Shown piece by piece: positions 1 to 56,925 of a stretch of 64,000 nt of DNA. This DNA is from Holothuria leucospilota. Its lineage: Eukaryota. The position numbers and the translations under genes are program-made. Location of the stretch: contig CM055969.1 in the NCBI GenBank assembly GCA_029531755.1, positions 23,687,285 through 23,751,284 of the forward strand, written 5' to 3'. The notes under the pieces are model-generated. The model was not told where the DNA came from, searched no databases, and saw only the letters and a list, made by a program, of their open reading frames with translations. How positions within the stretch are numbered: the stretch's first letter is position 1; each line of letters begins with the position of its first letter.

Positions 1-42
1 GGTTTCTGTCTCTGAACATAGGGAGTAAGATGACTGATTCTT

Positions 43-1545
43 TGCCAAAGGCAGGCAAGGAATCTGTGCTATGGTGATGTCGTGTATGTGTGTATGTGTA
101 TGTATGTGACCCCTAGCTTGTAAACACGATATCTCAAGATAGCACTGACCGACACATTTCAGATTTAGTGTATACATTCGTCATGTTGAGAGGAAGAAGC
201 CTATTGTTTTTGGTGGAGGTCAAAGGTCATTTGAAGTCACCAGAGGTCAAAAACCAAAAGCTTTGTAAACACGATATCTCAAGTAAGCAATGACCGACAC
301 TTTTCATATTTAAGTAAACAGATTTGTCATGTCAAGAGGAAGAACCCTGTAGTTTTTGGTAGAGGTCAAAGGTCATCTGAGGTCACCAGAGGTTAAACTG
401 CTAAAACTTCGTATTAAACGGCTTGTAAACACGATACCTCAAGGTAGCAATGACTGACACTTTTCATATTTGGTATATGGATTTGTCATGTTGTGAGGAA
501 GGATCCTATTGTTTTTGGTGAAGGTTAAAGGTCATTTGAGGTCACCGGAGGTAAAAGGCCAAAATGCTTGTAATCACGATATCTCAAGATAGGAATGACT
601 GACACTTTTCATATTTGGTATATAGATGTATCATGTTGAGAGGGAGAACCCTGGTGTTTTTGGTGGAGATCAAAGGTCATTTGAGGTCACCAGAGGTCAA
701 AGACCAAAAACCTTGACATCGTGGTATGTCAAGATAGGAATGGCCGATATAGATTTGTCATGTTGAGAGGAAGAATGCTGTTGTGTTTGGTAAAGGTCAA
801 AGGTCATGTGAGGTCACCAGTGGTTAAACTGCAAAAACCTTGTAAAATGGCTTGTAATCACTATATCTCAAGATAGCAATGACAGGCACTTTTCATATTT
901 GGTATATAGATTTGTCATGTTGAGAGAAAGAGCCCTATTGTTTTTGGTGAAAGTCAAAGGTCATTTGGGGACCCTGGAGCTAAAAAACTGAAAAGCTTGT
1001 AAACACAATATCTCAAGATAGGAATGAAGGACACTTTTTCGCATTTGGTATATAGATTTGTCATGTAAGGAAGAATCCTATTGTTTTTGGTGGAGGTCAA
1101 AGGTCATCTGTGGTTACCATAGGTCAAAAAGTGAAATTTCCCAAGAATTCCCAAGATTGCCATCTGGGGTAATCAAAGGTCAAAAAGCAAAGTTTTCCAA
1201 GAAGTCCCAAGATCATCATCTGAGGTCACCAAGGGTCAAAAAGCAAAATTTCCCAAGAATTCCCAAGATTGTCATCTGGGGTCACCAGAGGTCAAAAAGC
1301 AAAATTTCCCAAGAATTTTCAAGATCCAAGATCCATTGGAGTTGAATCCCTTTCGAGACACTTCCGTTTTTCCTTTTTGTTATATTTGGTGGGGTTCAGA
1401 GGTCATGTGAGGTCAGTAGAGATCAAATTGTTAAAACATCGTAAAATGATGTAGTCAAGAAAGATAAATTTGAGGGATAAACCTCAGTGCAACAAAGCAT
1501 CCCCATTCGGCAAGGAATCACTAAGCCTTTGGGCTTTCTAGTTTT
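43..1545 (+). mobile_element. Family A composite MITE-like element. Layout: hairpin-like 5' terminus (..ggcaggcaaggaatc), (TG)n at 86-108, about 7 satellite monomers of ~145-150 bp (114-1060), ~66-bp subrepeats (1130-1330), then the 3' terminus ..cattcggcaaggaatcactaagcctttgggctttct.
   Basis: The same ordered structure recurs in reverse orientation at 39459-40978 and as a satellite-free ~240-bp copy at 26653-26890. Both termini carry GGCAAGGAAT in inverted orientation. Confidence 0.75.
217..249 (+). promoter_or_regulatory. Example of the AGGTCA half-site cluster carried by every satellite monomer: AGGTCAaAGGTCAtttgAAGTCAccagAGGTCA (DR1 + DR4 + DR4 spacing)
   Basis: The motif is read directly. 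It is reiterated in each ~145-bp monomer of families A and B on both strands, e.g. 365-398, 513-546 and 8448-8470, and as tgacct..tgacc in minus-orientation copies. Confidence 0.4.
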
Positions 1546-3266: not shown

Positions 3267-4506
3267 GTAAGTTTATGTTTAATTGCATGCTGCCTTCCTT
3301 TTTCTGCTAGTGTTAAAGTATTGGTTAATTTAATGTGTTTTTCTTTGTTACTGCTGATACACTGTCAGGGATGTGTCCACACCAGGTGGCACAAGGTCAG
3401 TCTTGGCACCCAGGACTTGTACATTTACCAAACACAGATTTAAAATTGGTCAGATTTAGCTGGGGTGTTTCTTTGGTATATGTTTAGCACAAAACTATCT
3501 GTCTACCATTTTGGGGACTGAGGAGTCACAATTTCCTGCCAGAACTCAATACTATTTGGGCACATTTCTGCACTGTGTTTGAATACTGTCATGAAATTTC
3601 TCATCACATCCAAAAATTCATGTTGTTGATGTATCGTCATTTAGAAAATACTTCATGTATCTGCAAAGATTTTGAGCTGATGTCATAGACATCTGTCCAT
3701 TAGGGTCCGGGATGACGGGCTATGGTTCGGGTTTGGGGTGAAATTTTTCATAATTAAGTGTCACTCTGTGAATGTAACTATAGATGTACCGCTCCCCATC
3801 TCCTTCCCTGTTTTATTTATTTTATTTTTATTTCAACCTTCAAGGGTAAAACTCATTTAGCAATTGATACAAAATGCTAATCTTACATGAGGCCCTCAAT
3901 GTAGTTCAAAATTTAAGAAGTATAAAAAGTGAAAACATGTATATATGTACAAATAAAGAACAAAAGGTAAATGAAAATAATACACAGAAGTGAACCTATA
4001 CAGTACTAGAAAGTTCAAAGTTCAGGCCCTTAAATTTTTTTTTTTTGCTCCATTTCTTTCTTTCTTTCTTTTTTCAATGCTTGTTCATAAGTTATGTACA
4101 TGTAATTTACATACAGGGGTAATACATTACATTGTAGTGTGCATCCTTTACTTTGGGCTAGACATATTGTACATGATCAAGGCTCGTGATAATATACCTG
4201 CCCATGTGGAATTAAAAGCACATGCATACATCTATGAACATTTCTTTTGAATGCAGGATAACACAAAACATTCCATATGTACAGTACAATGGTTTTATAA
4301 TATTATGATCTCTTTGTTTAGCAAAACTACTCAACAGTGGTGCAGAGCAATGGTTTTGAACCCTTCAAGTATCTAAAAGCTGGGAATACACTTTCATATG
4401 TCAGATTGGGACAATTATTGGGGATTCCACTAGTGGGACTGGGAGAAATTTTGAATATTTGTAGAAGGGATGCATGCAATCACAATGGCCTTTGTGTGTT
4501 TCTGAT

Positions 4507-5540
4507 GCAAAGCTTGTAAACACAATATCTCAAGATAGTCCTTAATGTGGTATATAGTCATTTTTAGAGCTCTATTGTTTCGGGTGGAGGTCAGAGGTCA
4601 TTTGAGGTCACAGAGGTAAAAGCTGCAAAGCTTTAAACGCAATATCTCAAGACAGGAATGTGGATATTTTAATACTTTTATATAGATTTGTCATATTGAG
4701 AGGAATAACCTATTTTTGGTAAAGGTCAAAGGTCATCTGAGGTTACCAGAGGTGAAACTACGAAAACCCAAGAAAACTGCTTGAAAGCACAATATTTCAA
4801 TATGCAAAACATTGAAGGGTCTCATGTCTAGCATGTGATTGCCCGTATTGAGGACAAGAATCATGTTGTGTTTGATATTGTTTTTGTGGAGGTGAAAGAT
4901 CATTTGAGGTTACCATATAAGTAAAATTTTGCAGAGCTCATTAACACAGAAGAAGGGTAAACCTTGATGGGTTTTATGCTTAGCTTTACATGCTCTACAT
5001 TTAATGCAAAACCTCTTTGCATTTTGATGGAGTTCAAAGGTCTTTTTAGGTTATCAAAAGTCAAAATGTACAAATGTGTTAAACATGATACCACAAGAAG
5101 TGTTACTTGAAGGATCTTTCACTTAGCATGGAGATGGTTGACAATAAATTCAACACCTCTGTTGTTCTGGTGGAGGTCAAAAGTCTTTTGAGGTCACCAG
5201 AGGTCTAACAGAAAACCTGGTAAACAAGATGTCTTAATAAGGATAATTTTGTAAGATGTAATAATTTGCACGTAGATGCTCCATAGCAACAGTTGATAAC
5301 TAAAAGAACCTTACAGTGTTTGGTGGAGATAAAAAGGCATTTGAACTCACAAATGTCAAACTAGGAAAACCTTGTTAACATCATATCCCAGGAAGGGAAG
5401 CTTTGGCGACTCTTGTACTTGACAGATAGGTGCCAAATCTTATATAAAGAATAGAAGAAACCTATTGATTCTATTGGAAGTCAAAGGTCATTTGGGCTCA
5501 TGAGAGGTCTAGCTGTGAAATTATGTAAGCCTAATATATC
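4507..5540 (+). repeat. Degenerate older array of the ~145-bp satellite (cttgtaaacacaatatctcaag...ggaggtcagaggtcatttgaggtcac...), without the terminal modules
   Basis: Diverged monomers are recognisable at about 4507, 4635, 4790, 5040, 5160, 5320 and 5465. Confidence 0.55.
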
Positions 5541-6169
5541 TCAAGAACTGAAATAGTACATGTCAAGATCTTTTGTTCTCCCACCACCGATCACTGCCCA
5601 GCGCTCCCCCTCACTACTTAAAATTACCCCGCACCAAGCAGAATGAAAGGATTTGACATGTAGACTGGGCGTATTTTCTTTGCAAGGAATCAGAGAACAG
5701 ACATTCTGGTTACTTGATGTGACCACTGCTTTGAACCTTATTGGCCAAAATATCACAATGCCTTTGTAACTTTTAAGATTAAACACTGCACCATACACAT
5801 TTACCGTAACTCCTCCTTAATAATATACTAAATTACACACACTCCTTTGTCCTCCCGGACACAAGTCCACAATAGCCATCCAGTGCAGTGAATGACTGAT
5901 GACAGTACTACATGACTTATGCACTGCCACATCGTTGGAGGCAGGGGACATACTCCCTTTTGGCTCTTCAGTGTTTGTTACCTTAGAATACAAAGGAATC
6001 AGTTTTGTTCAGAACAGAGTACTCACAGCTACCATAGCTATTCAGGTATTAGATACAACTCAGGCACACAACATACGTGTTTGCATAACAAAAAGAGAGG
6101 AACCCATTCCTGTGTCCACCAAATCCCTTGAGCTATCCCTGACTCTTTGTAAACTTTGTAAATTCCATG

Positions 6170-6660
6170 ACTTTTCCGTTTGGAAAATCAATACTTTTCC
6201 CTAAATTCCCTGCTTGCTAGTAACCTTATACAGTGTGCAGACTATAATCTCATAAGAAAACATTAAAAGTTAATTAACTTGAGAATAAAAAAAACAACCT
6301 TGAACCAACAGCTTATTGCTCTTGGATGAAAAATTAGTTAAACTTTGACCCAAAATGACATTTGACTTCCTAATTTTAGATTCTTAATGCTTCAAATGGA
6401 TGACTCCCTGACTTTTACCTGTTTGGAAAAATCAATACTTTTCCCTGAATTCCCTGCATGCTAGTAACCTTGTACATTGTGCAGACTATAGTCTCATAAG
6501 AAAACATTAAAAGTTAGTTAACTTGAGAATAAAAAAAACAACCTTGATCCAACAGCTTATTGCTCTTGGATGAAAAATCAGTTAAACTTTGACCCAAAAT
6601 GACATTTGACTTCCTAATTTTAGAGCCTTGATGCTTCAAATGGATGTCCCTTAGCTCTTA
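6170..6660. repeat. Tandem duplication of two ~243-bp units, immediately 3' of the NAT stop codon
   Basis: Near-identical copies: ttggaaaatcaatacttttccct(a/g)aattccctgc...ctaattttaga... repeated at about 6177 and about 6420. Confidence 0.8.
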
Positions 6661-6705: not shown

Positions 6706-7605
6706 TTATATCAGTTTGCTAAATTTGAAGACTTTTTCAAGCTTCTTGACTGAATATTGAGGATAATGTTCCAGAAAAAAGTCCATCAGTTCTGTCTTTT
6801 TCATGGTAACCCTTTCTGTGGTGTCATCCTTCAGGTTGTAAAATGTTGCATGGGTCTGACCATCTAAACACACAATGTTTACATGTAATTGCTCAGTTAA
6901 GAATGTAGAGAAGAGTAAACTGTCAAATGGCTTACTGAAGATACTGCCACGTTTGACATACTCTTGCCACTTTCCAATGAATGTGGACCATGCGACTTGT
7001 TTACTGAGCCTGTACTCTAACATTAGTTGCCAACGTTCCCCATTTGAGTCGCATATGACTGGTGTGTCAGGATCAGGGGCTAAAGGAATGCAAAGCAGCA
7101 AAATGTCATTCTTTGTCTTGAAAAATTTGATCTTAAATTTATGAAATGTGTATACAGGGGACTCCCTCTCAAAATCAAGGGGAACAGCTGTATAGAGGGG
7201 GTATCTCATGCCAGGGTCCACCAGATGGCGACTTCCAGGGTAAGAAATATCACAGACGATGGTGCTGATATGGGTGTCTTTGTCAATAGGCCTATCTATT
7301 ATTGGATGGTTCATACCAGGTATGTGGTAGGTGATATGTCCAAGTTGCTCTAGTATGACCTTGGTGAAAGGATTTATCCAGATACAGGTCCCCCCTTGGC
7401 CTGACAGAATGTGGTATTTGAAATCTTCAGGCGTCAAGTCTGGGAACTTTCCTGCCAAAAGGTTTATGTTCGTGAAAGGTAGACTTTTCTTTATCCCTTT
7501 GATCACATCATTCAGGAAGTCCAATGATTTTCCTCCAGCATGCACTTGTGAACGGCATATCCCTAAACTGTTGTCTAGGAAAGTGAATGCTTCCTCCTTT
7601 GTCAA
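6706..7605 (-). CDS. NAT: Arylamine N-acetyltransferase (NAT), complete intronless 299-aa CDS
   Basis: An uninterrupted 900-nt ORF. The N-terminus MTKEEAFTFLDN resembles human NAT1 MDIEAYLERIGY. SLPFTNINLL aligns with VPFENLNIH. GQGGTCIWIN aligns with RGGWCLQVN and places a Cys at the catalytic Cys68 position. THISTIVCD aligns with MIHLLLQVTID and places a His at the His107 position. HLVDPGM aligns with YIVDAGFG and places an Asp at the Asp122 position. Length is 299 aa, typical for NAT. Confidence 0.85.
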   Translation of the reverse strand: MTKEEAFTFLDNSLGICRSQVHAGGKSLDFLNDVIKGIKKSLPFTNINLLAGKFPDLTPEDFKYHILSGQGGTCIWINPFTKVILEQLGHITYHIPGMNHPIIDRPIDKDTHISTIVCDISYPGSRHLVDPGMRYPLYTAVPLDFERESPVYTFHKFKIKFFKTKNDILLLCIPLAPDPDTPVICDSNGERWQLMLEYRLSKQVAWSTFIGKWQEYVKRGSIFSKPFDSLLFSTFLTEQLHVNIVCLDGQTHATFYNLKDDTTERVTMKKTELMDFFLEHYPQYSVKKLEKVFKFSKLI

Positions 7606-7676
7606 CAGGTACGGTACTTCTTTGCCTTGTGTTGTCTAAATGGTAGAAAGATAATTAAAAGAATGTTACCATTTCT

Positions 7677-8718
7677 GGTTTCGATGATAAGAGAAACCTA
7701 TGCATTCATGATGGCATATGTGTGTATGTATGTGTGTATGTGCATGCACTCACCCACGTGGCCTTAGCGGGTGTGAGAGCTCTGCTCTCGCAGCGTCTCT
7801 CCTAGCTCACACGCGGATAGAAACCGGCGTAGCTGCCTGAAAATTCGGCAACTGCGAAGAGAAGTGGCTGCACATGTCTGCCTTGGAGCGCAGCTTGCCC
7901 TCAAGCACGTACATCCACTCGACTCGTTTGTGGGCAGCTCCGCTGCTGGGAATTTCTCTTGGATTCCCTACCCTACCGGGTCCTTGCCTGGTAGCCCGTA
8001 AGGCATGGAGTGTGCGTACTGTATGTGTGTGTGTATGTGTGTTTGTGACACTTTGCTCGTTAACATGATATCTCAAGAAGGGAAACTCTGACAGTTCTCA
8101 AACTTGGTACATAGATGCCCCATATTGAGAGGAAGAACCCTATTGTTTTTGGTAGAGTTCAAAGGTCATCTAGGGTCACCGGGGGTCAAACACTGAAAAC
8201 CTTATTAACATAATATCTCAAAGGAGGAAGCTTGGATAGATTTTATACGTAGTATGTGGATGCATTGTGGTGAAAAGATGAACCCTATCATTTTTGGTGG
8301 AGGTCATCTGGGGTCAATGGGGGTCAAACACTGAAAACCTTGTTAAAATGTATTTCCAGGTAGGAAGCTTGAATAGATTTCATACTTAGTGTGTGGATGT
8401 GTTATGGTGAAAAGATGGACCCTATTGTTTTTGGTGGAAGTCAAAGGTCATCTTGGGTCACGAGAGGTAAAAAAGCAAAATTTCCCTAGAATTCCCAATA
8501 GTTTGATGTGGGTTCACCAGAGGTCAAAGAGCAAAATTTCCCAAGAATTCCCAAGATCGTCATCTGGGGTCACCAGAGGTCAAAATGCAAATTTCCCAAG
8601 AATTAAATGGGAACACAAAACAGTATTTTTCCAACATGTTAAGATAGCATTTGACCATTGACTGAAAGATATGGGACATCATGGATTTATCTGGAATAGA
8701 ACATATATCATCGAAACC
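7677..8718 (+). mobile_element. Family B composite MITE-like element, copy 1. Layout: 13-bp TIR GGTTTCGATGATA inside a hairpin, (TG)n, about 3 satellite monomers (8050-8460), ~66-bp subrepeats (8470-8620), then the inverted TIR at 8706-8718.
   Basis: The 5' end ggtttcgatgataagagaaacc is itself a hairpin. Its 3' end is the reverse complement of the 3' end of the copy at 52801-56077. The element lies 72 bp upstream of the NAT start codon. Confidence 0.75.
7741..8020. mobile_element. GC-rich ~280-bp insertion that splits the (TG)n microsatellite of family B copy 1; candidate SINE-like insertion
   Basis: Absent from the otherwise collinear copy at 55935-56040, where the (CA)n tract is uninterrupted. 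Local GC is far above the flanks. TG-repeat sequence resumes on both sides. Confidence 0.5.
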
Positions 8719-9112
8719 TCAATGCATTTTTGCATTCTGGTTCTTAAAATAGTGCAGACAAGCTGCTAACAACAATGTTGATAATAAACACACTCAACAT
8801 TCTTCAATGATAAATCTCCATACCTCTTTCAGTATTGGCCTCAGAAATTAAGCTGGGGTCTGGTTTAATGCTGATGCAATGCCGCTTGTTAATCGTAATC
8901 AGATGTCCCTAAGATCCCGTACAAACTACAGATTTGTTTCTCCAATCATCATAAGTGTCTCATAATCTCTCTCACATATGCAAAAATTATAGGCTTACAC
9001 AAACTGACAGGGTTATGCTTAGGTCTATTGCATTGTAATTCATATGGATATGAAGTTACTAGAGAAGATTGTTCTCTTCGGCAACTGCTTGAGACGGGAT
9101 ACCCACTAGCCA

Positions 9113-18576: not shown

Positions 18577-21500
18577 TCTGGGTCACCCTGATGGTTTATG
18601 CAAATTGTGCTCTTGTTTGTTATGATTCATTGCAACTGGTTTAACATCATGTTTTGACAATGTCTTGGAAAGCAATATACGTGCCAGTAACAGGTATGAG
18701 GTATGGAAACATTTAACTTTTTAGTACCGGTACTTTGTTTTTCTTTTCTTTTACTTGAAACCTTTTCCTCCCAGTATTGTTCTAGTAATGTATTTACATA
18801 CATTTATCACATTTTATTTAGTATGTTATCAGTTTTGAAGAGAACTCTCTTTAATACAACTACAATTAGGTTCTGTTACTTTTGAGCTGTTAAGCAGCTA
18901 TTAAAATTCTGGAGTTGCTGAAAGTAGGTGACAGTCATGTAAAAGTATTTCTGAGGCTTGAACCACAGTAAAGTGTGTGGTTGATCATGAAGTAGAAAAC
19001 GATTTATTAAATGTAAAGTGAGTTTCTGATGCACAATGAGGAAATTTCATGAGCTTAACTCATGAGATTAACATCTGAGGAATATAATGAGAAGTGCCCT
19101 GACAGTTTCATTTTGTAATTGTGCGATTAAGATTTCTCTCGATATGTATTTTTTTCGGTATACATTGCTTTGCATGGCTTGTGTCTGCATATAAACCAAT
19201 ATATCAACCAATTTTTTACTTGATTAGCCATTTTACAGTCAGTTTTAAAAACTGTCAAAATTAAATGAAGTACATTTTGCATGATACAGTTATACTCCTA
19301 ATAAATTAAATCTTCCTTTTATGACCTTTGACCTTTGTTGAAAACTATTTTTTCCTGTAATGATATGCTAATCTCTGGCAATCTTTGTTTTCTCTCACCT
19401 GTACATGTCACATTATCTGGCACTGAATTATACTAAGTGCCGTAAGGTAGCACAACAGGTCTCAAGTTTCTTTAAGTGCCAAGTTACAACTGTGACTTAT
19501 AACTTATAACTATGTATCAACAGTGTAGGGGTAGTGAGGAGGGGTAAGTCACCCCCTCTCCCAACCCCACCTCACTGCCATGTCTTAACTTTGGTGCAGT
19601 GTGCTTGCAATCAGGAACCAGGTGTAAAAGAATTTTGCAAGATTCCAGTAGATTCTCCTTTGCTTATAATATAATTGCAGCCAAGGGCGTAGATTTCTTT
19701 TCAACTTTTGGGGGGATGGGGTAAACTTTGCAAATGTGGAACGCGTGCACAGAGAGCGCGAAGCACGAGCCCATGACAGGTGGGGTCCAGGGGCCCGCCT
19801 TAGGGCCCCTGGTGGGGTCCATGGGGCAAAGCCCCGGTGGGGGTGCAGGGGGCAAAGCCCCCGGAAGCTCCTGGGTTTTAATGTCTCAGAAGTGCCAGGA
19901 AGACTGTTTTAAGGGGTTATTTTCAGTGGTAATGTTCTTTGGTAGGCAATTGGTATATTCATGCATTTAGGAAATAGCCTACTATTTTGAGCACATACTG
20001 TAACTCGTTGATAAGCTTCACTGGATTGAAATTGTACAAGAGCAACAATGTCCTGTTAAGCTTAAAAGGCAGGGATCAACATATAGGGTCATACCAGTAC
20101 CAGACAACTGGATTTTGAATTCGGAGATCATTGCAAATCCTGCAAGTTGGCTTGAGATCAGTGGCATCGCCAGATTTTTTGTGATTGGGGGTCCATAGAT
20201 GATGTCGTAATAATACTTCAGTTCCCCAAGTCTGCTTAAATTACGCCTTTATTTTTCATGCGTTCCTGCATTTGCATGCAGCAGTTTTGATCTTTCATTT
20301 GTCACTACATAAAGGTGTCGTCCTAGGGAAGGGGTTCCCCTCCCCTTTAAGAATTTTTTTATTACTTTAAGGTAGTTTAGATGCAAAATGGTGCTATCTT
20401 TGTGATGTTTTTTGGAACTGATCATATATGGCTGGAAAATGTCCATAATTTAGTGAATGTTAATTTTTGGTAAGGTAAAAGAAGAGAATATGTTGTCTAT
20501 TAAGAGACAGATACGTTGTCAACAAATCTCCTGAAGCCCCCTCCCTTCTGTCTATTTTACTGCCTTCTGGGAAAGTTTTTACACAAAAATATGTGCATGG
20601 AGTCCACAGAAACATTCTTGAGTTATTACGAAATATGTCCTTTCCTTCATTGTGCATTGTGAAAGGGCATCTAAGGCTAGCAGATACCTGAATAGGACCT
20701 CCTGAAAGCTCTGCATTAAATCATATTAATTTTTTGGGGCGGGGAGGCAATTAAATAATGCGTATACTACCTAACATCCAAATGATAATATAGAGTACGA
20801 CGCTGAACACTTCACAACTATCGTATTTTTACTACTTTTGAACTAAAATCCGGACGAACAGCTGCCAGCAATGAAAAATGAGAGGGAGGGAGAGTATAGG
20901 TGCAGGGAGGTGACATTAGAAATCCCTGACAGGTGTAGTAAAAGGGGTGAAGGACTAATAAGAGCATTACAGAGTGTTGTTTTCGTCATAAGTGTATTAA
21001 CAATCACCATCTATTCCGATAATTGCTCAGCGCAAACCGGCGAAGCTCTGGTAAAATTTTTTGAAACATGTTTAACGGCAGATACGTACTTCCAACCTTC
21101 TACATCATGCTATATATTAGATTGAAAGATCCCATATTGGTGCGAGGTCCCCCACAGATGTTTGGAGATGTATATCTGTTCTTCGGAAAGTGTCGTGATC
21201 AGAACAGTTTCGTGTATTATTATCTTAATAATGGTCATGACATGGAGTGTAAACAGTGACGAATAATATTTCCATTACAAAACCTGCATTTAGACTCTAC
21301 ATCGAGACACTTTCAATTGCCCAACAAACCTACATGCACTGCCATAAGCCAGTCTTTTACCTATTAATTTGTAAACTTTCAACATTTTGCTGCTGTGCTT
21401 CTCTGAAAGTTGCTATTGGAAGATATTGATAAGATGAGTGACAGTGACGTAACGTTGGAAGCGCGCGGAGCGCGCGAAAATTTTGATAGATTGCCAACAA

Positions 21501-24500: not shown

Positions 24501-24774
24501 TTAAAGAAATCACTTTTAATCCTCCCCAGACTCTAAAAAAGGTTTATAGTGAATCAGATGCCATACATTAGCACAAAGGTTACTTATGATGTGATACTCT
24601 AATAAAAACATGCATGTGATAAACAACTTAGTTACTATGGTGTTACTATCACCTTTGCTTAAAGGGCACACAAAGTTTGCAGGGTCATACCTCCATATAT
24701 TCACATAGCGATGAACGAGAAAATGCCACTTATTGAACCATATGCACAAGTGATATACAATTTTACCATCTCCT

Positions 24775-25620
24775 TTGACAAATCACAACGATTTTACTAC
24801 GTCAAATCTTCCATTTTCTTTGGCCATGCTGCTTCCATTTCATCTGCATACGTATGAATGGATCTTAAAAACATTTCTTACGAGTAAATTCAATCCATGT
24901 TACAGCTTTAAGCTTAATTTTTTTTTTTGGGCAGTGATTATTACATAATTTTATACGTATCTTCCACACATGATTATTTCCCACCAATTCTATTGGTCAG
25001 GAAAAATGCAAGCATTGCTTAAGCCTTACATAGCTTTGTGAAAACTAGCAAAAAAAGATTTCTCCTAATGAAGCCTTTTCACTAAAAAAAAAAAAACAAA
25101 AAAATGAGAAAACAGGACAAACATAGAACACTTCACAACCACACACATTTCTACTCCAAATAAACACTCTGCCCCTCACCCCTTTGACAAATCACAAAGA
25201 TTTTAAGTCAAATCTTCCATTTTCTTTGGCCATGCTGCTTCCATTTCATCTGCATACGTATGAATGGATCTTAAAAACCTTTGTTGCGAGTAAATTCACT
25301 CCATGTTACAGCTTATTACAGATTATTACATAATTTTATACATATCTTCATAATCTTCCACACATGATTATTCCCATCAATTCTATTGGTCAGGAAAAAT
25401 GCAAGCACTGTTTAAGCCTTATACAGCTTTGAGAAAACTAGCAAAAGAAGATTTCTCCTAATGAAGCCTTTTCACTAAAAAAAAAGAAAAAAAAAAGTGA
25501 GAAAACACAACAAACATAGAACACTTCACAATCACACACATTTCTACTCCAAACAAATACTCTGCCCCTCACCCCCACCCTCACCCCACCCCCGACAAAA
25601 GACATTAAAAACATTTGATA
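24775..25620. repeat. Tandem duplication of two ~425-bp units in intergenic DNA
   Basis: gacaaatcaca(a/c)gattttac..tcttccattttctttggccatgctgcttccatttcatctgcatacgtatgaatggatcttaaaaac.. is repeated at about 24777 and about 25195, including the poly-A segment and the acacttcaca(a/t)ccacacacatttctactccaaa(t/c)aaa(c/t)actctgcccctcaccc tail. Confidence 0.8.
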
Positions 25621-30789: not shown

Positions 30790-31206
30790 TGGACGATTTT
30801 GGCCCTTTTCACCTCTGGTGACCCCAAATGACCTTTGACCTCTACCAAAAACGATAGGGATCACCTTCCTGATATGGGCCATGCACATGCCAAGTATGAG
30901 ATTCCTTGAAGTTACACATCTTGAGATAGAGTGTTTACAAGCAATTTCTATGGCGTTCACTATTTGACCTCTCGTGACCCCAAATGACCTTTGAGCTTCA
31001 CCAAAAACAATAGGGATCATCTACTCAATATAGGGTATCCACATGCCAAGTATGAGGTTCCCCAAGATTACCTTTCTTGAGATAGAGTGTTTACAAGCAG
31101 CGTCACACACACACACATACATACGCACACACACACATACACACACACATACACACACACGCCATCACCATCGCATAGATTCCTTGCCTGCCTTCGGCAA
31201 GGAATC
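30790..31206 (-). mobile_element. Family A element, truncated copy: two satellite monomers, (AC)n and the terminal hairpin attccttgcctgccttcggcaaggaat
   Basis: tgaccccaaatgacctttgacctctaccaaaaac.. monomers, then gtcacacacacacac..gccatcaccatcgcatagattccttgcctgccttcggcaaggaatc. Confidence 0.65.
31095..31160. repeat. (AC)n / (ACAT)n microsatellite module of family A elements. Equivalent tracts at 86-108, 26790-26850 and 40880-40935; family B tracts at 7700-7740, 8021-8046 and 55935-56040.
   Basis: Direct reading of the dinucleotide runs adjacent to the element hairpin terminus. Confidence 0.85.
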
Positions 31207-39458: not shown

Positions 39459-40978
39459 ACCAGAAAGCCCAAAGGCTTAGTGATTCCTTGCCGAATGGGG
39501 ATGCTTTGTTGCACTGAGGTTTATCCCTCAAATTTACAAGTATCACAAGTATTCAACATCCCTGTCTTGAAATGTCATGTTTTTAAATGCATTTGGTCTT
39601 TGACCTCTGATGACCTCTACTGACCTCTGACCTCCAATCGATCTTGGATCTTGAAAATTCTTGGGAAATTTTGCTTTTTGACCTCTGGTGACCCCAGATG
39701 ATGATCTTAGGAATTCTTGAGAAATTTTGCCTTCTGACCTTTTGTGACCCCAGATGACACTCTTGGGAATTCTTGCTTTTATACGTCTGGTGACCCCATG
39801 ACAATCTTGGGAATTGTTGAGAAATTTTGCTTTTTGACTGCTGGTGACCCCAGATGATGATCTTGGGAATTCTTGGGAAATTCTGCTTTTTGACCTCTGG
39901 TGACCCCAGTAACAATCTTTGGAATTCTTGGGAAATTTTGCATTTTGACCTCTGGTGACCCCATATGACGATATTGGGAATTCTTGGGAAATTTTGTTTT
40001 TTGACCTCTGGTGACCTCAGATGACCTTTGACCTCTACCACAAACAACAGGGTCCTTCCTCTCAACATGATAAATCTATATACCAAATATGAAAAGTGTC
40101 GGTCACTGGCAACTTGAGATATCGCGTTTACAAGCCGTTTATGAGGTTTTCGCAGTTTAACCTCCGGTGACCTCAGATGACCTTTGACCTCTACCAAAAC
40201 AATAGGCTTCTTCCTCTTGACATGACAAATCTGTATACCAAATATGAAAAGTGTCCTTCACTCCTATCTTGATAAATTGTGATTACAAGGTTTTCAGTCT
40301 TTTACTTCCAGTGACCTCAAATGACCTTTGACCTTTACCAAAAACAATAGGGCTCTTCCTCTCAACATGACAAATCTATATACCAAATATGAAAAGTGTC
40401 GGTCATTGCTAACTCAAGATATCGTGTTTACAAGCTGTTTATGAGGTTTTCGCAGTTTCACCTCCGGTGACCTCAGATGCCCTTTGACCTCTACCAAAAA
40501 CAATAGGCTTCTTCCTCTTGACATGACAAATCTGTATACCAAATATGAAAAGTGTCGGTCATTGCTACCTTGAGATATCATGTTTACAAGGTTTTTGCTT
40601 TTTGACCTCTGGTGACCTCAGATGACCTTTGACCTCTACCAAAAACAATAGGCTTCTTCCTCTTGACATGACAAATCTGTATACCAAACATGAAAAGTGT
40701 CGGTCATTGCTACCTTGAGATATCATGTTTACAAGGTTTTCACTTTTTGACCTCTGGTGACCTCAGATGACCTTTGACCTCTACCAAAAACAATAGGGTT
40801 CTTCCTCTCAACATGACAAATCTATATACCAAATATGAAAAGTGTCAGTCATTACTTACTGGAGATATCGTGTTTACAAGCAAGGCGTCACATACACACA
40901 CACACATACACACATACGCACACACACACACACGCCATCACCATCGCATAGATTCCTTGCCTGCTTTCGGCAAGGAAT
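39459..40978 (-). mobile_element. Family A composite element, complete copy in reverse orientation (intronic in the WD40 gene)
   Basis: Begins accagaaagcccaaaggcttagtgattccttgccgaatgggg and ends ..gtcacatacacacacac..gccatcaccatcgcatagattccttgcctgctttcggcaaggaat. Contains ~66-bp subrepeats at 39600-40010 and ~145-bp monomers at 40010-40870. Confidence 0.8.
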
Positions 40979-41686
40979 AAAAAAAAATGAACCGCATCCT
41001 TTGATTGTAATTTGCTTCTTCACTTCTCACATGGTTTGGCTTCATCACTTAAAGATTAAGATAACTATGCCTTCCATCCTTTACACAGCCAAAAAACCCC
41101 ATCAAACAGCAAAGATAAAACTACTCTTAAGAGCCCTGAAGAATAGGAGAGCAGGGCTACAGAATAAAATACATAAGCATGCAAGCAAGCAAACAAACAC
41201 CACAGCTTTAACAGGGAACAACATGAGTTCCAAATATGAGGAGGTTTAATATCAATGAATTCATCCTATTCACAAAGACCTATCCTCGTTTTCCAGATCA
41301 TTGATTCCTAGGACACACCCATTGCAATCTATGTTCATGAAATAAAACTCCAAAAACTTCAAAAATTCCTTTCTGATCATTTGACATTACTGATGAGGAA
41401 GGCAGCAGCTTTACATTTAAATATAAATCAAATTACAGATGCACGTGTGTAAAATCAAATATTAACATTAATTTTAAAGACTTCTTTTGAGAACTGTGGC
41501 ATTACCTCGATCCCACCCCATCCCACTGCAACTCTTCTATGGAACAAATAAATGACTTCCTATATATTCATAATTCCAGTATGACCTACTTGTAAAAACA
41601 TTCACATTATATTTCTAGCATATACAAAAACTTCTGGAATATGCAAAGAGGATTTTTTACTTGTTTTTTGCTTTTCATTGACATAC

Positions 41687-49403: not shown

Positions 49404-51251
49404 CTGGCAATCAGACAAATAAACTTAGCATTTTCCCAGGAATGCTTTTTCTAGTGATATTACATTTTTCCTCAGTAATTAATTTATTGGTTCCTGGACA
49501 AATGTATAGTGGACAGTCCCAATCGGAAAACATTCTCGACCCCCCCTCCCAATTACCATCTACTAAGTTCCTATCCTGGATGATTTTGGATTATTCTGTG
49601 GGGTAAGATGTCTCATTGTAATAGTTCAGAATCGTCCAACGAGACACTTCCTGGAATGGGAAATGCCCAGATGGAATTGTCTAGATAGAAGTCACCCAGG
49701 AAATGTTCTCAAGGCAAAAATTGTCGGGGAAGGGGGGAGGGGTGTGTCTGCCGGTGGGGAGTTGTCCAGTCACAACTTAATAATTAACATTTATAAATCT
49801 ATCACTGTGACTTTATACTGATGATGTACATGCAAGTTACAGCTACACATTATTTCATACTTTGCTAAAGATGATTTTAAGCAAACAAAGAGGACAAGGA
49901 CAACAATTATGATTCAGATTTGTCAAACTTGTAGACACAGAATAAGATCTAATTATAACTAGATAATTAATTGCAATTTTTGGTTCCAGGTGAAGCCGGG
50001 AACTGTAGTTGTCATTCACCTGTTGAGCCTGCAATGAACCCGCCACGACCCCGACTGTGACTACTTTTCATATCTGTTGCCGGCTTTGGCATTAGGTAAG
50101 TGCACCGTACATGCGATGGCAAAATGCACTCAGTTAAGCCGAAACCGTATGAAATAGTTTTCAAAGGTTTGCTTCTAATAATTCATATCCATCGCCAGCT
50201 TGGGAAATTTGCCCAAACGCACCATACACGAGACTTCCACAAGTTGCACTCGCGGTGTGTAAGTCGAAACTGCGTTAGCGACGTTCAGTCAGATTGTGGC
50301 GTCATAGGAGATTCCACTGTCGTTTGCATGCACTGCAGTGATTTTGCGTCAGGCAAAAGTACACTGTACAGTATATATTAACTACATACATTCATTTTTA
50401 TTTTATAATGTGGGTAGAAATACTGTTAACCTAACTTAAGCATTAGGCAAACCTTCACTATCTTGCTAAGCCAACAAGCCAATAGTGGCTAGCCTACCTT
50501 TTTTAACTAACATTGCTGCACTAACATAGTTCTAGGCTACTTACAAAGTTCCATCATTCCTTGTGTTAATTTTGCACTGCCTGTACATGGTTAGGTAAGC
50601 TGAATTGCAACGTGCACGTGCATACTATGCTTAGTTGAGGCGATCACCGCCTAGAACCATTCACAAGTTTTCCTTTGATTGAAAGATCTTCTTGCAGAAG
50701 TGAAAAGTTTCAGTGAAAGTGAGATTCTAAAGTTGACTTCTTAACCAAGTTCTCTCTTCACCTGAGTGACTTCAGCCCCCCCTCATACTAATGAATTATA
50801 CCAAAGATAAAGTTTAAAACTTTTTAATTACAAACATGCACCACCTTGCAATAAATCTTTCAACCTTCAGTACGAACCAATCTTTTATGACTATGTTCGT
50901 TAATATTTGAATAAGATCCTCTCATAAGATGTATCATAAATACATTGGTGTACCTAGAAAGTTGTCAAGCACTGTGAATACTTCCTGTGTCACCTCTTGG
51001 AGGGGATGATTCCCTGAGAGGGATCTAAGGGGAGGGGGTGCTGCCCTCCTGTTTAAGAAATGTATCTTACACGCAAAATGGTGCTATCCTTGGCCAAGTT
51101 TTCAACTGATTACATGTGTTTTATAGAAATCGACCTAGTGAATGTTCCTTGTGGCATGATATTCTTCACTGACTGGGAATGTTGGTAGACTACTCCCCCC
51201 TCTATTCCCCCTACTGCACCACTGCCTGTACACAAGAAATCTACTACTCAC

Positions 51252-51396
51252 CTTCTTCAGTGCTTTTTCCAGATGGGATAAAAATATCACAGGAGTTGAC
51301 TCCCCTCTCATGAGCAGGAATGGTTGTTATTTCTACACCACGGTGAGACCAGATTTTCAGCTCCCCATTGGTGGATCCAGACACTATACATCCATG
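51252..51396 (-). CDS. WD40 exon; HGCIVSGSTNGELKIWSHRGVEITTIPAHERGVNSCDIFIPSGKSTEE(E)
   Basis: Acceptor tgtttctacag|, donor GTGAGT. Ends in phase 1. Confidence 0.75.
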
Positions 51397-52035
51397 CTGT
51401 AGAAACAGATTCAAAAGCATCACGTTAGCTAGCTAGGAACAACAAAAAGGTGGCTGCTCAGTATGAACCACACTATGCTATACCACAAAGACATGTACAG
51501 TCACTCTTATGCAACAACAGTTACCATTTACCACTTTAACTCATAGATGACTAGGATTACAACCAATCTTGTTTGTAAGGTATCACAACTTGGAATTTGG
51601 TGAGCAATTTCCCCTCTTCAACCTGTGCAATCATGACTGAAGAAAAAGTAATACCATCTATGCACACCTCAACAGTTTTATAATATTGTAACACACTATC
51701 ATGTTTCCAACACTGATCTAAAAAGCATTTAGTTTCCACATTGGCAACTAATTTCATGTGGTAGAAGAATGGGGTTTGGTCACTGTCACATTTAAATGTA
51801 CAAATGAATACCCCACAGACAAGGCCATGGAGGAGGGTGAGATGCATGATAACATAGCAACAGAGCCTTGGTGGGAACAGTCAGCCTAGCAGACAGAAAC
51901 TGCACAACCATAACATATTACCATTCACTGGTAAGGGAGGGGATGGGGGGGGGGGGTTTAATCCTGGTAAGGTCAGGAACCAACAGTTATATCTCGACTT
52001 GAACCAATTGGTTGGAAACTGGGACGTTAAACCTC

Positions 52036-52064
52036 ATCTAACCTAACCTAACCTAACCTAACCA
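52036..52064. repeat. (CCTAA)n pentanucleotide microsatellite, about 5 units
   Basis: taacctaacctaacctaacctaacc read directly. Intronic. Confidence 0.8.
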
Positions 52065-52138
52065 ACAGTTATATCTGAGACTCCATGTGGCTGTGTACAG
52101 CTCAATACAAAGCCTTTCACATTACTTAACTGACTCAC

Positions 52139-52246
52139 ACTAAAGGCAACAGAAGTCACTGCAGATGAGTGACCCTTCATTGTAACTTTAGCTTGCTGCT
52201 TCTTGAGATTCCACAACTTAACAAGGCAGTCATTGGATCCAGTCAC
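52139..52246 (-). CDS. WD40 exon; VTGSNDCLVKLWNLKKQQAKVTMKGHSSAVTSVAFS
   Basis: Acceptor ctcctcctag|, donor GTGAGT. Joins ..DNGEYL|VTGSND.. across the satellite-containing intron. Confidence 0.8.
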
Positions 52247-52800
52247 CTAGGAGGAGAAGGAAAAATACAAGAAATAACAGATGCAAGTCCAAACAGTTGT
52301 GGAAAGAACTTAAATCGCATGACAAAATTGCAAGTACCATGGATCAGACTTGTAGTGAGTATATACTTGTACTCACAGTTCTGCACAATTGTCTGTACTC
52401 ATACTTATGAGAATGAATTTATACTCATACTCATACTAACAACCAAAGATACTCTGCTTGTACTCATACTCATGACAATGTACTCACAGTACAAGTCTGC
52501 TATGGATGCCCCATAGTACCGCCAACACAACTGCCACTGTTGCCACTTTTTTGTCCAAAGCTGTACCAATATATATTGAGTCTGAACTTAATCTCATCAC
52601 AAGGAGTATCTTAAACTTTTCCATACAAACATTTAGATTTTATACCACAAAGGACAGACTTCTCTTTGATTATACATGAAAAAAGCAGTAAAATTAGTTA
52701 TCAGCAGTTCACACAAGTGGTTAGGGAAACATAAATATTACAGACAATGTTTCCACACTTCTAAGATTTATTCTAAAACCAGAATGCAAAAATGCATTGA

Positions 52801-55800
52801 GGTTTCGATGATATACTGTATGTTCTATTCCAAATAAAGCCAAGATGTCCCATACCTTTCAGTCAATGGTCAAATGCTATCTTAACATGTTGGAAAAATA
52901 CAGTTTTGTATTACTATTTAGTCTTGGGAATTCTGGGGAAATTTGCGTTTTGACCTCTGAAGACCCCAGATGATGATCTTGGGAATTCTTGGGAAATTTT
53001 GCTCTTTGACCTCTGGTGAACCCATGTGATATTCTTGGGAAATTTTGCTTTTTTTACCTCTGGTGACCCTAGATGACCTTTAAACTCCACCAAAAACAAT
53101 GGGGTACATCTTCTCACTATAACACATCAATTTACCACGTATGAAATCTATTCAAGCTTCCTACCTGGAGATATCATCTTGAAAAGGTTTTCAGACATTG
53201 ATCTCTGGTGACCCCAGATGACCTCTGACCTCCACCAAAAACAATAGGATTCATCTTCTCACTATAACGCATCTACATACTAAGTATGGAATCTATCCAA
53301 GCTTCCTACCTGGAGATATTGTGTTAACAAGATTTTCAGAGTTTAATCCCCAGTGACCCCAAAAGAACTTTGACCTCCACCAAAAATGATAGGATTCTTC
53401 CTCTTACTATAACGCATCTACATACAAAGTATGAAATTTATCCAAGCTTCCTACCTGGAGATATCAGGTTAACAAGGTTTTCAGGGTTTGACCCCTGGTG
53501 ACCTAAAATGACCTTTGACCTCCACCAAAAATGATAGGCTTCTTCCTCTTACCATAATACATCTACATACAAAGTATGAAATTCATCCAAGCTTTGTAAC
53601 TCACGTTATTGTGTTAACAAGATTTTCAGGGTTTGACCCCCGGTGACCCCAGATGACCTTTCACCTCCATCGAAAATGATACTGTTCTTCCTCTTACCAT
53701 AACGCATCTATATACAAAGTATGAAATTCATCCAGGCTTCCTACCTCGAGATATTGTGTTAACAAGGTTTTCAAAGTTTGACCCCCGGTGACCCCAGGTG
53801 ACCTTCGATCCCCACCAAAAACAATAGGGTTCTTCCTCTTAGTATGGGGCATCTATGTACCAAGTTTGAGAACTGTCACAGTTTCCCTTCTTGAAATATC
53901 GTGTTAACGAAGTTTTCAGGGTTTGACCCTCAGTGACCCCAGATGACCTTTCACCTCCACCAAAAATAATAGGATTCTTCCTCATACCATAATGCATCTA
54001 CATACAAAGTATGAAATTCATCCAAGCTTCCTACCTCAAGATATTGTGTTAACAAGGTTTTCAGAGTTTGACCCCCGGTGACCCCAGGTGACCTTTGACC
54101 CCCACCAAAAACAATAGAGTTCCTCCTCTTAATATGGGACATCTATGTACCAAGTTTGAGAACTGTCACAGTTTCCCTTCTTGAAATATCGTGTTAAAGA
54201 AGTCTTCAGGGTTTGACCCCCGGTGACCCCAGATGACCTTTCACCTCCACCAAAAATAATAAGGTTCTTCCTCATACCATAATGCATCTACATACAAAGT
54301 ATGAAATTCATCCAGGCTTCCTACCTCGAGATATTGTGTTAACAAGGTCTTCAAAGTTTGACCCCCGGTGACCCCAGGTGACCTTTGACCCCCACCAAAA
54401 ACAATAGAGTTCCTCCTCTTAATATGGGACATCTATGTACCAAGTTTGAGAACTGTCACAGTTTCCCTTCTTGAAATATCGTGTTAAAGAAGTCTTCAGG
54501 GTTTGACCCCCGGTGACCCCAGATGACCTTTCACCTCCACCAAAAATAATAAGGTTCTTCCTCATACCATAATGCATCTACATACAAAGTATGAAATTCA
54601 TCCAGGCTTCCTACCTCGAGATATTGTGTTAACAAGGTTTTCAAAGTTTGACCCCTGGTGACCCCAGGTGACCTTTGACCCCCACCAAAAACAATAGGGT
54701 TCTTCCTCTTAATATGGGACATCTATGTACCAAGTTTGAGAACTGTCACAGTTTCCCTTCTTGAGATATCGTGTTAACGAAGTTTTCAGGGTTTGACCCC
54801 CGGTGACCCCAGATGACCTTTCACCTCCACCAAAAATGATAGGGTTCTTCCTCATACCATAACGCATCTACATACAAAATATGAAATTCATCCAAGCTTC
54901 CTACCTCAAGATATTGTGTTAACAAGGTTTTCAGAGTTTGACCCCCGGTGACCCCAGGTGACCTTTGACCCCCACCAAAAACAATAGGGTTCTTCTTCTC
55001 AATATGGGGCATCTATGTACCAAGTTTGAGAACTGTCACAGTTTCCCTTCTTGAAATATCGTGTTAACGAAGTTTTCAGGGTTTGACCCTCAGTGACCCC
55101 AGATGACCTTTCACCTCCACCAAAAATAATAGGATTCTTCCTCATACCATAATGCATCTACATACAAAGTATGAAATTCATCCAAGCTTCCTACCTCAAG
55201 ATATTGTGTTAACAAGGTTTTCAGAGTTTGACCCCCGGTGACCCCAGGTGACCTTTGACCCCCACCAAAAACAATAGAGTTCCTCCTCTTAATATGGGAC
55301 ATCTATGTACCAAGTTTGAGAACTGTCACAGTTTCCCTTCTTGAGATATCGTGTTAAAGAAGTTTTCAGGGTTTGACCCCCGGTGACCCCAGATGACCTT
55401 TCACCTCCACCAAAAATAATAGGGTTCTTCCTCATACAATAATGCATCTACATACAAAGTATGAAATTCATCCAGGCTTCCTACCTCGAGATATTGTGTT
55501 AACAAGGTTTTCAAAGTTTGACCCCTGGTGACCCCAGGTGACCTTTGACCCCCACCAAAAACAATAGGGTTCTTCCTCTTAATATGGGACATCTATGTAC
55601 CAAGTTTGAGAACTGTCACAGTTTCCCTTCTTGAGATATCGTGTTAACGAAGTTTTCAGGGTTTGGCCCCCGGTGACCCCAGATGACCTTTCACCTCCAC
55701 CAAAAATGATAGGGTTCTTCCTCATACCATAACGCATCTACATACAAAATATGAAATTCATCCAAGCTTCCTACCTCAAGATATTGTGTTAACAAGGTTT

Positions 55801-56077
55801 TCAGAGTTTGACCCCCGGTGACCCCAGGTGACCTTTGACCCCCACCAAAAACAATAGGGTTCTTCTTCTCAATATGGGGCATCTATGTACCAAGTTTGAG
55901 AACTGTCAGAGTTTCCCTTCTTGAGATATCGTGTTAACGAGCAAAGTGTCACAAACACACATACACACACACACACACACATACACACACACACATACAC
56001 ACACACACACGAACATACACACATACATACACACACACGCCATCATGAATGCATAGGTTTCTCTTATCATCGAAACC
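52801..56077 (-). mobile_element. Family B composite element, copy 2, carrying a greatly expanded satellite array: about 10 x 290-bp dimers, ~66-bp subrepeats at 52920-53060, and (AC)n at 55935-56040
   Basis: Termini ggtttcgatgata (52801-52813) and tatcatcgaaacc (56065-56077). Seven identical or near-identical artefact ORFs recur at exactly 290-bp spacing (53951, 54241, ... 55691), with identical pairs 1,160 bp apart (53951=55111; 54821=55691). Confidence 0.8.
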
Positions 56078-56162
56078 AAAAACAGCTTGCAATTTCTGTA
56101 AAAGTGCAATCGTTTCCTTGAAATCGCCCTCTTGAATACTGCAATTTCTCTAATCTTCTTAC

Positions 56163-56291
56163 CAAGTATTCACCATTGTCAGACCAGGCACAAGATGTAA
56201 TCCAGTCTTTATGACAGCTGTGTAATCTCATCTCTGCATCATTTTTACTTTTCTTCAGACTTCGTGAATCAGTTGCCCAAATTACTATCAT
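56163..56291 (-). CDS. WD40 exon; MIVIWATDSRSLKKSKNDAEMRLHSCHKDWITSCAWSDNGEYL
   Basis: Acceptor tttttttgaag|, donor GTAAGA. Lies immediately 3' of the 3.3-kb satellite-bearing element, which is intronic. Confidence 0.75.
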
Positions 56292-56925
56292 CTTCAAAAA
56301 AAGAAGTATCACTATGAAAAAAGTATCTTACAAGTGTAAAGGGGGGGGGGAAGGACACAATAGGGTGCTGTTATGGAGGCAAATGCACTTCCCACAGCTG
56401 CAAGAAATGAGGCCCTCCCCTCATCACCTATAAAAACTGAACAGTGTGGATGCAATACAAATTGTACAGAATTACAAAAATCATGTCCTTTATGAGAAAA
56501 TTCAGTACCTTCAAAAATCCTTAAGTGCATTATCCACACTGTCATTCTACATTCAAATTGAAAGTTGACCTATCCGTAGTTACTGACTCAAGAATAGTGA
56601 TACTGGTCCTCTTTGGCACAGGTGATCCTTTCCTTCCCCAAGCAAATTTTGCAACCACCTCACAGAAGATGTACATAAATCTTGAGCATGTTCACAGATC
56701 ACCATCACTTCTTGGTAGATCATATAGTGATACACAGACCATGGGATGCCTAACATACCTTCAGAATACTGTTACAACTGGAAACTGCTTACTTGTCTCT
56801 GGTATCATGATTATTAAGTGTTACCTTTATGGTTATTACATGTCAAGAAAGCACACTACGGTACACTTTAACAAGTCAGTTTCTGCTATAAATCTTACAA
56901 AGCACACAGAGACCAGTTTGCCTAC

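Follow-up and report, generated by a model that had tools for sequence, protein, structure and literature searches.

Stepwise tandem duplication as the probable origin of a long repeat array in an intronic HINE-like element of Holothuria leucospilota

A 64,000-nucleotide stretch of the Holothuria leucospilota genome (GenBank assembly GCA_029531755.1, contig CM055969.1, forward-strand positions 23,687,285 to 23,751,284; referred to here as the window, with coordinates counted from its first letter) contains a tandem array of 145-bp monomers. The array is carried by an element organised like the HINE/DINE-1 non-autonomous Helentrons, and this element is located within a TEP1-like WD40 gene, in one of its introns. 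We consider it likely that the array grew by tandem duplication of an 870-bp block, followed by tandem duplication of a 290-bp dimer nested inside the first copy of that block.

The array spans 53062-55940 (2,879 bp) and consists of 19.9 monomers without a single indel. Tandem Repeats Finder reports it as a single array at both periods, with 19.6 copies and 76% matches at 145 bp, and 9.9 copies, 91% matches and 0% indels at 290 bp. Monomers m0-m19 were defined as consecutive 145-bp slices from 53062 on, and all pairs were compared. Two types, A and B, are distinguished, the consensus sequences of which are 77% identical; monomers of the same type are 94-100% identical. The initial annotation of this DNA described the satellite array as built from a 290-bp dimer. 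Variable-site tables and difference counts bear this out from 53787 onwards, where B and A monomers alternate strictly, but not for the first five monomers, which are all A-like, are 71-86% identical among themselves in the identity matrix, and find their best matches in the two A-like monomers of a second, reverse-oriented copy of the element (copy B, 7672-8751). The array is accordingly divided as follows.

53062-53786: edge monomers m0-m4, five diverged, A-like, non-dimeric monomers
53787-55940: dimeric part, with B/A alternation from m5 on
55817-55940: terminal B monomer m19, truncated at position 124; its counterpart at the end of copy B (8180-8056) is 94% identical

Because the terminal monomer of copy B shares both the truncation point and the junction with a microsatellite, m19 is read as the ancestral last repeat of the element. 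Variable sites in 53787-55940 define three A and three B subtypes, arranged in the order B1 A1 B2 A2 (B2 A2) B3 A3 / B1 A1 B2 A2 B3 A3 / B1 (truncated), where the brackets mark an extra dimer. Monomers of the same type but of different subtype diverge by 4.4%.

The initial annotation had further proposed a higher-order repeat of about 1,160 bp from the identity of artefact open reading frames (ORFs) along the array. The ORFs at 53951 and 55111 are indeed identical, as are those at 54821 and 55691, and the ORF at 54241 is unlike both pairs; the second pair, however, is separated by 870 bp. Exact identity at a distance of 1,160 bp is found only between 53843-54184 and 55003-55344 (342 bp). Elsewhere, 54569-55038 matches 55439-55908 at a lag of 870 bp (1 mismatch in 470 bp), and 54065-54348 matches 54355-54638 at a lag of 290 bp (284 bp, exact). 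Rather than peaking at multiples of 1,160 bp, identity along the array peaks at both 870 bp (97.1-97.4%) and 1,160 bp (96.6-97.1%). Removal of any one of the B2-A2 dimers leaves a single peak, at lag 870 (98.8%); all other lags then give 95.2-95.7%, with the value for lag 1,160 dropping to 95.2%. The signal on which the 1,160-bp unit was based is thus real, but the period was misread: as an extra dimer is inserted inside the first copy of an 870-bp block, the lag is 1,160 bp for the upstream part of the block and 870 bp for the remainder. The term higher-order amplification also overstates the case, as the repeated block is present in two copies only, indicating a single duplication rather than an amplified multi-copy array, and an apparent third partial copy is original flank. 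The array resembles higher-order repeats of the primate alpha satellite type in that the block copies are 99.4% identical, compared with 95.6% for monomers of the same type within a block and 77% for A and B, but it differs in comprising just two blocks, in being a 2.9-kb array in an intronic transposon, and in not being homogenised.

The two duplications, termed T (870 bp) and S (290 bp), can be delimited to the following segments.

53843-55002: T1, first copy of the 870-bp block, now 1,160 bp with S2 included
54065-54354: S1, source copy of the younger 290-bp duplication
54355-54644: S2, the extra dimer, which shifts the lag from 870 to 1,160 bp
55003-55872: T2, second copy of the 870-bp block (six monomers, that is, three dimers)

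Without the extra dimer, T1 and T2 show 5 differences in 870 positions (0.57%), and S1 and S2 a single one in 290 (54349/54639). Against the 4.4% background between same-type monomers, the probability of five or fewer mismatches in 870 bp is P ~1e-11, and that of the single mismatch in S is P ~3e-5. Similarity falls off at the edges of the T copies, with 10 mismatches in 145 bp on the left flank, five of them within the last 37 bp, and 2 in 68 bp on the right flank. Both junctions are hybrid monomers. Monomer m13 combines the head of the terminal B monomer with the tail of m5, and the exchange is confined to an interval of 36 bp (55003-55038); m8 joins an A2 head to an m6-like tail, and here the interval is 12 bp.

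The order of the two events is given by two derived bases, C at 54204/54494 and A at 54262/54552, which are common to S1 and S2 and have no counterpart in T2, so that S is younger than T. The sole site that seems to conflict with this order (54366/54656) falls outside the duplicated segment. The same bases bear on a model that begins with the duplication of an eight-monomer, 1,160-bp unit through unequal crossing-over and continues with the loss of a 290-bp dimer from the second copy. The exact 342-bp match at lag 1,160 is what such a unit would leave, and the subtype order by itself fits the 1,160-bp and 870-bp models equally. However, the two B2-A2 dimers of the first copy differ from each other at 1 of 290 positions and from the dimer of the second copy at 4-5, and, as the derived bases are confined to the dimers of the first copy, this model needs either two parallel changes or an additional conversion, which makes it quite improbable.

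Under the two-step history, the ancestral element would have had a small number of A-like 145-bp monomers, closed off beside the microsatellite by a truncated terminal monomer of type B. Older rounds of duplication of 290-bp (A+B) units may have brought the array to about 12 monomers; subtraction of T and S leaves 11.9. The first event would then have been the tandem duplication of the 870-bp, six-monomer block, with breakpoints in register within two B monomers, and the second would have doubled a 290-bp dimer in tandem within the first of the two 870-bp copies, with breakpoints in register within two A monomers; together they would yield the present 19.9 monomers. The most likely mechanism is out-of-register homologous exchange, either between sister chromatids or between homologues, from which in-register hybrid junctions are expected. 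Replication slippage or template switching gives the same product, and gene conversion could mimic it, so the unequal crossing-over proposed initially agrees with the junctions but is indistinguishable, on one sequence, from slippage or out-of-register gene conversion. We infer that both events took place in situ and that the array itself serves no function. Growth of this kind is ordinary behaviour for such arrays and a known kind of event.

The divergence of the T and S copies (0.3-0.6%) compares with 4.4% between dimer subtypes and about 2-7% between element copies. Outside the array, the two family B copies, that is, the element studied here and copy B, are 93-98% identical, which makes the T and S duplications younger, by a factor of about ten, than the separation of these copies. 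Of the very recent expansion claimed in the initial annotation, recent local growth by homology-guided tandem duplication holds; expansion of a 1.16-kb unit does not. If the exchange took place between homologues, part of the 0.3-0.6% may represent pre-existing allelic differences, so that the divergence would set an upper bound on age and not provide a clock.

Several points weigh against this reconstruction. Four of the five T1/T2 differences fall within 94 bp (54475-54568 versus 55345-55438; P ~0.02), which suggests an additional short gene-conversion tract outside the two-step model. The order of dimer subtypes is in itself not significant, as 560 of 5040 permutations do as well (P = 0.11), and the case for duplication is therefore built on the mismatch counts and the sharp boundaries. 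In addition, the evidence comes from one genome sequence. The clustered differences also lend something to an explanation without any change in length, in which out-of-register gene conversion overwrote a stretch of the array with neighbouring sequence, as they suggest that conversion is at work in this array; it would also yield the same in-register hybrid junctions. It would need an 870-bp tract shifted by exactly six monomers and a second tract of 290 bp, and array growth at some stage is required in any case, given the three monomers of the sister element and the five to nine of other copies; conversion by itself is distinctly unlikely to account for the pattern. Assembly artefact, in which haplotype variants or mis-joined reads were falsely placed in tandem, would be compatible with the 0.3-0.6% divergence, which by general knowledge is within the allelic range expected of marine invertebrates. 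The array is, however, just 2.9 kb long, free of indels and joined by clean in-register junctions, and single long reads normally span such a length, so that an artefact is most improbable.

The ends of the element that carries the array were set by where homology to the reverse-oriented copy at 7672-8751 starts and stops. Its parts, in addition to the array, are the following.

52777-56082 (minus strand): whole HINE-like non-autonomous Helentron, family B copy 1, with its 5' end at 56082 and its 3' end at 52777
52777-52798 (minus strand): 3' terminus, ending in TTCTGGTT and including the palindrome AATGCA-TTTT-TGCATT at 52783-52798
52801-52813 (plus strand): 3' subterminal inverted repeat, GGTTTCGATGATA on the plus strand, a perfect 13 bp
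52922-53061: short array of 56-bp repeats (Tandem Repeats Finder period 56, 2.2 copies)
55950-56038: degenerate (CA)n/(CACATA)n microsatellite (Tandem Repeats Finder), also present in copy B and the family A copies
56056-56077 (minus strand): 5' subterminal inverted repeat at 56065-56077 and a complementary short repeat at 56056-56061, followed by five T to 56082

Read on the minus strand, the modules are in the order five T, the GGTTTCGATGATA repeat, GAAACC, a (TG)n-type microsatellite, the 145-bp array, the 56-bp array, a 108-bp unique block, the second subterminal repeat, the AATGCA-TTTT-TGCATT palindrome and the TTCTGGTT end. The position of the microsatellite between the 5' module and the central repeats is the same in four copies. 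GGTTTCGATGATA has four perfect matches in the window, at both ends of both family B copies (52801-52813, 56065-56077, 7677-7689 and 8706-8718), and lies 5 nt from the 5' end, this being the T run, and 24 nt from the 3' end, in keeping with the few nt and the tens of nt expected of HINE-type elements at the respective ends. The palindrome is located 6 nt from the 3' terminus and its single-stranded fold has an energy of -8 kcal/mol (z -4.5; none of 200 shuffled sequences was as good). A TTCTGGTT end with a palindrome is also found in the family A copies of the window and in L002, a TARA Oceans plankton metagenome scaffold (ENA ERZ28655349, 1-1891); in family A and L002 alike, the palindrome at the equivalent place is AAGCC-N4-GGCTT. 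The 56-bp repeats and the boundaries of the 145-bp monomers have a TGACCTCTGGTGACCCCAGATGAC block in common, which recurs in copy B and in family A.

According to Thomas et al. (2014, PMC4067079), HINE/DINE-1 elements carry 12-15-bp subterminal inverted repeats, a palindrome near the 3' end and a microsatellite, may contain central tandem repeats, have T runs at their ends and insert at TT. The element shares with them the subterminal repeats, 3' palindrome, microsatellite and central tandem repeats, and by these hallmarks it is classified as a putative HINE/DINE-1-like non-autonomous Helentron. The initial annotation had not recognised the element as a non-autonomous Helentron. No direct repeat that could represent a target-site duplication is present in the flanks of four insertions, the ends of which, with boundaries taken from copy homology, are T runs on the element strand. 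Classification as a classical miniature inverted-repeat transposable element (MITE) was rejected: the inverted repeats are subterminal, with homology between copies continuing outside them for a further 24 nt and 5 nt, and the flanks are without direct repeats. Other features fit the Helentron assignment less well. At 24 nt from the end, the 3' subterminal repeat lies closer to the terminus than in mite HINEs, for which 38-60 nt are reported (PMC4067079), and the 5' hairpin of family B (GGTTTC...GAAACC) is weak, with 6 bp and z -1.7; that of family A is strong, with a 10-bp stem and z -3.4. Among window ORFs of at least 90 amino acids, which were read by eye and of which a minority were also compared with protein-family profiles, none resembled a Rep or helicase. 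No autonomous partner sharing the element ends thus came to light in the window, and the classification is a structural one.

About five copies of such elements are present in the 64-kb window. Copy B contains two A-like monomers and one truncated B monomer, in agreement with the initial description of a short, collinear family B copy of about three monomers. The microsatellite of copy B is interrupted by a GC-rich insertion of about 290 bp (7745-8030), for which the only other match in the window is 25 bp of microsatellite; it has no match in Rfam. The family A elements, which have five to seven monomers and up to seven 56-bp repeats, contribute to the sizeable share of the window that such elements occupy.

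About 35-1545 (minus strand) and 39462-40985 (plus strand): family A elements with the same module order, the TTCTGGTT end and different subterminal repeats (a 13-bp pair, ATTCCTTGCCGAA / TTCGGCAAGGAAT)
30807-31184 (plus strand), 4506-5500 (minus strand) and 19322-19334: further family A copies or fragments

In L002, the same 145-bp repeat is organised as a 436-bp trimer, with 88.5% identity at lag 436 and 72.6% at lag 145, next to a 3' end of the family A type. This trimer organisation indicates that duplication of several monomers at once is recurrent in the repeat family. The monomers of L002 are increasingly diverged towards the 3' end of the element. Scans of metagenomes with the conserved monomer block gave no match.

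The repeat is also represented in protein databases. A search with the 63-amino-acid artefact ORF gave 88 matching protein clusters. Most are 'hypothetical proteins' annotated on many different large scaffolds of H. leucospilota, and some matches come from TARA Oceans contigs. Protein P0026 aligns without gaps over a B-A-B stretch (92% amino-acid identity), and P0035 spans the other type of junction; as both are Holothuria leucospilota proteins, the A/B dimer predates this locus and was not created there. None of the 88 proteins has a precomputed Pfam annotation. A protein-coding origin of the 63-amino-acid ORFs was rejected on this ground, and also as 290 is not a multiple of three and a stop ends the ORF in each dimer. 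Dozens of HOLleu_* 'hypothetical proteins' (P0011-P0098, 51-110 amino acids) are translations of the repeat and very probably false gene models, and the practical value of the 88 cluster matches is that they very probably point to annotation errors of this kind.

As the A/B dimer and some of the subtype variants also occur in H. leucospilota beyond this locus, T and S could have arisen in a master copy elsewhere and been brought into the intron by transposition. The roughly tenfold younger age of T and S relative to the divergence of the two family B copies of the window does not favour this course of events, and long arrays are thought to lower the mobility of an element (a model cited in PMC7492417). 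An origin in a master copy is therefore unlikely, and duplication within the intron remains the preferred explanation.

A close parallel to the element in overall organisation is the oyster element Cg_HINE (2020, PMC7492417), in which the modules likewise run from a 5' subterminal inverted repeat and its complementary repeat through a microsatellite and satellite-like central repeats of about 150 bp to a 3' subterminal inverted repeat and a palindrome; in some cases it also has two consecutive arrays. Cg_HINE elements are likewise dispersed in gene-rich regions, lack target-site duplications and have T-rich insertion sites. Arrays of at least five monomers made up 9% of the oyster sample and the longest had 29 monomers, a maximum that the array of about 20 monomers described here approaches. 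The two elements have no sequence relationship, the host here is an echinoderm, and the A/B dimer and the resolved two-step duplication history set the present copy apart. Bivalve tandem-repeat 'MITEs' (pearl and DTC84; PMC3879986), later reassigned to HINEs, are short and hold at most about five central repeats, each of about 160 bp, beside a microsatellite; they differ in sequence and host, and the present array is far longer than five repeats. Among echinoderms, the Tsp elements of the sea urchin Strongylocentrotus purpuratus (Cohen et al., 1985) have been classed as DINE-1-like (PMC4067079), a likeness that is based on that listing and not on sequence. In Drosophila, the central repeats of DINE-TR1 expand into satellites (PMC4067079). 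The element studied here probably belongs to an undescribed element family of echinoderms, and a literature search of limited scope found no paper on holothurian satellite DNA.

The array offers a worked example, with breakpoints and order of events, of Helentron-derived central repeats growing stepwise towards a satellite, a process already proposed for oysters and Drosophila (PMC7492417; PMC4067079), and it extends such elements to sea cucumbers. Its overall importance is limited.

The best-conserved part of the monomer across all repeat families of the window reads AGGTCA-A-AGGTCA-TCTG-(A/G)GGTCA on the minus strand. The spacing of the AGGTCA half-sites corresponds to the nuclear-receptor DR1 and DR4 types (e.g., at 40166-40200 and 53062-53095), and the 56-bp repeats retain the DR4 part of the block. 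Exact DR1 matches number 13 in the window, with none expected by chance, and 12 of them are located in monomer-bearing stretches. It is conceivable, though very improbable, that the block is a putative binding platform for a host nuclear receptor or for Helentron Rep, or that the duplications came from rolling-circle re-initiation by the transposon and not from host recombination. If the platform were real, growth of the array in the TEP1-like intron would alter regulatory dose.

The position of the element in the WD40 gene follows from collinear matches on both of its sides to the profile of the second TEP1 beta-propeller (Pfam PF25047), in the following minus-strand ORFs.

56067-56312 (minus strand; 56083-56312 outside the element): upstream exon, PF25047 positions 130-148
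52058-52246 (minus strand): downstream exon, PF25047 positions 152-186
51244-51423 (minus strand): next exon, PF25047 positions 189-227

All three matches are below the Pfam curated whole-protein cut-off, as they are short exon fragments, and the argument is based on their consecutive order, which agrees with the intronic location given in the initial annotation. The element thus occupies most of one intron of the TEP1-like WD40 gene and has the same orientation as the gene. A homologue search with the WD40 exon returned one weak match, from which gene structure was not obtained.

Near copy B, an intact, intronless ORF for arylamine N-acetyltransferase (6709-7605, minus strand) ends 67 bp from the 5' end of that copy. 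Its product is 65% identical to H. leucospilota proteins and 97% identical to the product of a Logan-assembled contig, and its homologues carry Pfam PF00797; a cluster of H. leucospilota paralogues, HOLleu_34476-34479, is located on one chromosome. Two unrelated two-copy tandem duplications are also present in the window, at 24772-25575 (period 393 bp, 88% matches) and 6164-6646 (period 244 bp, 93% matches).

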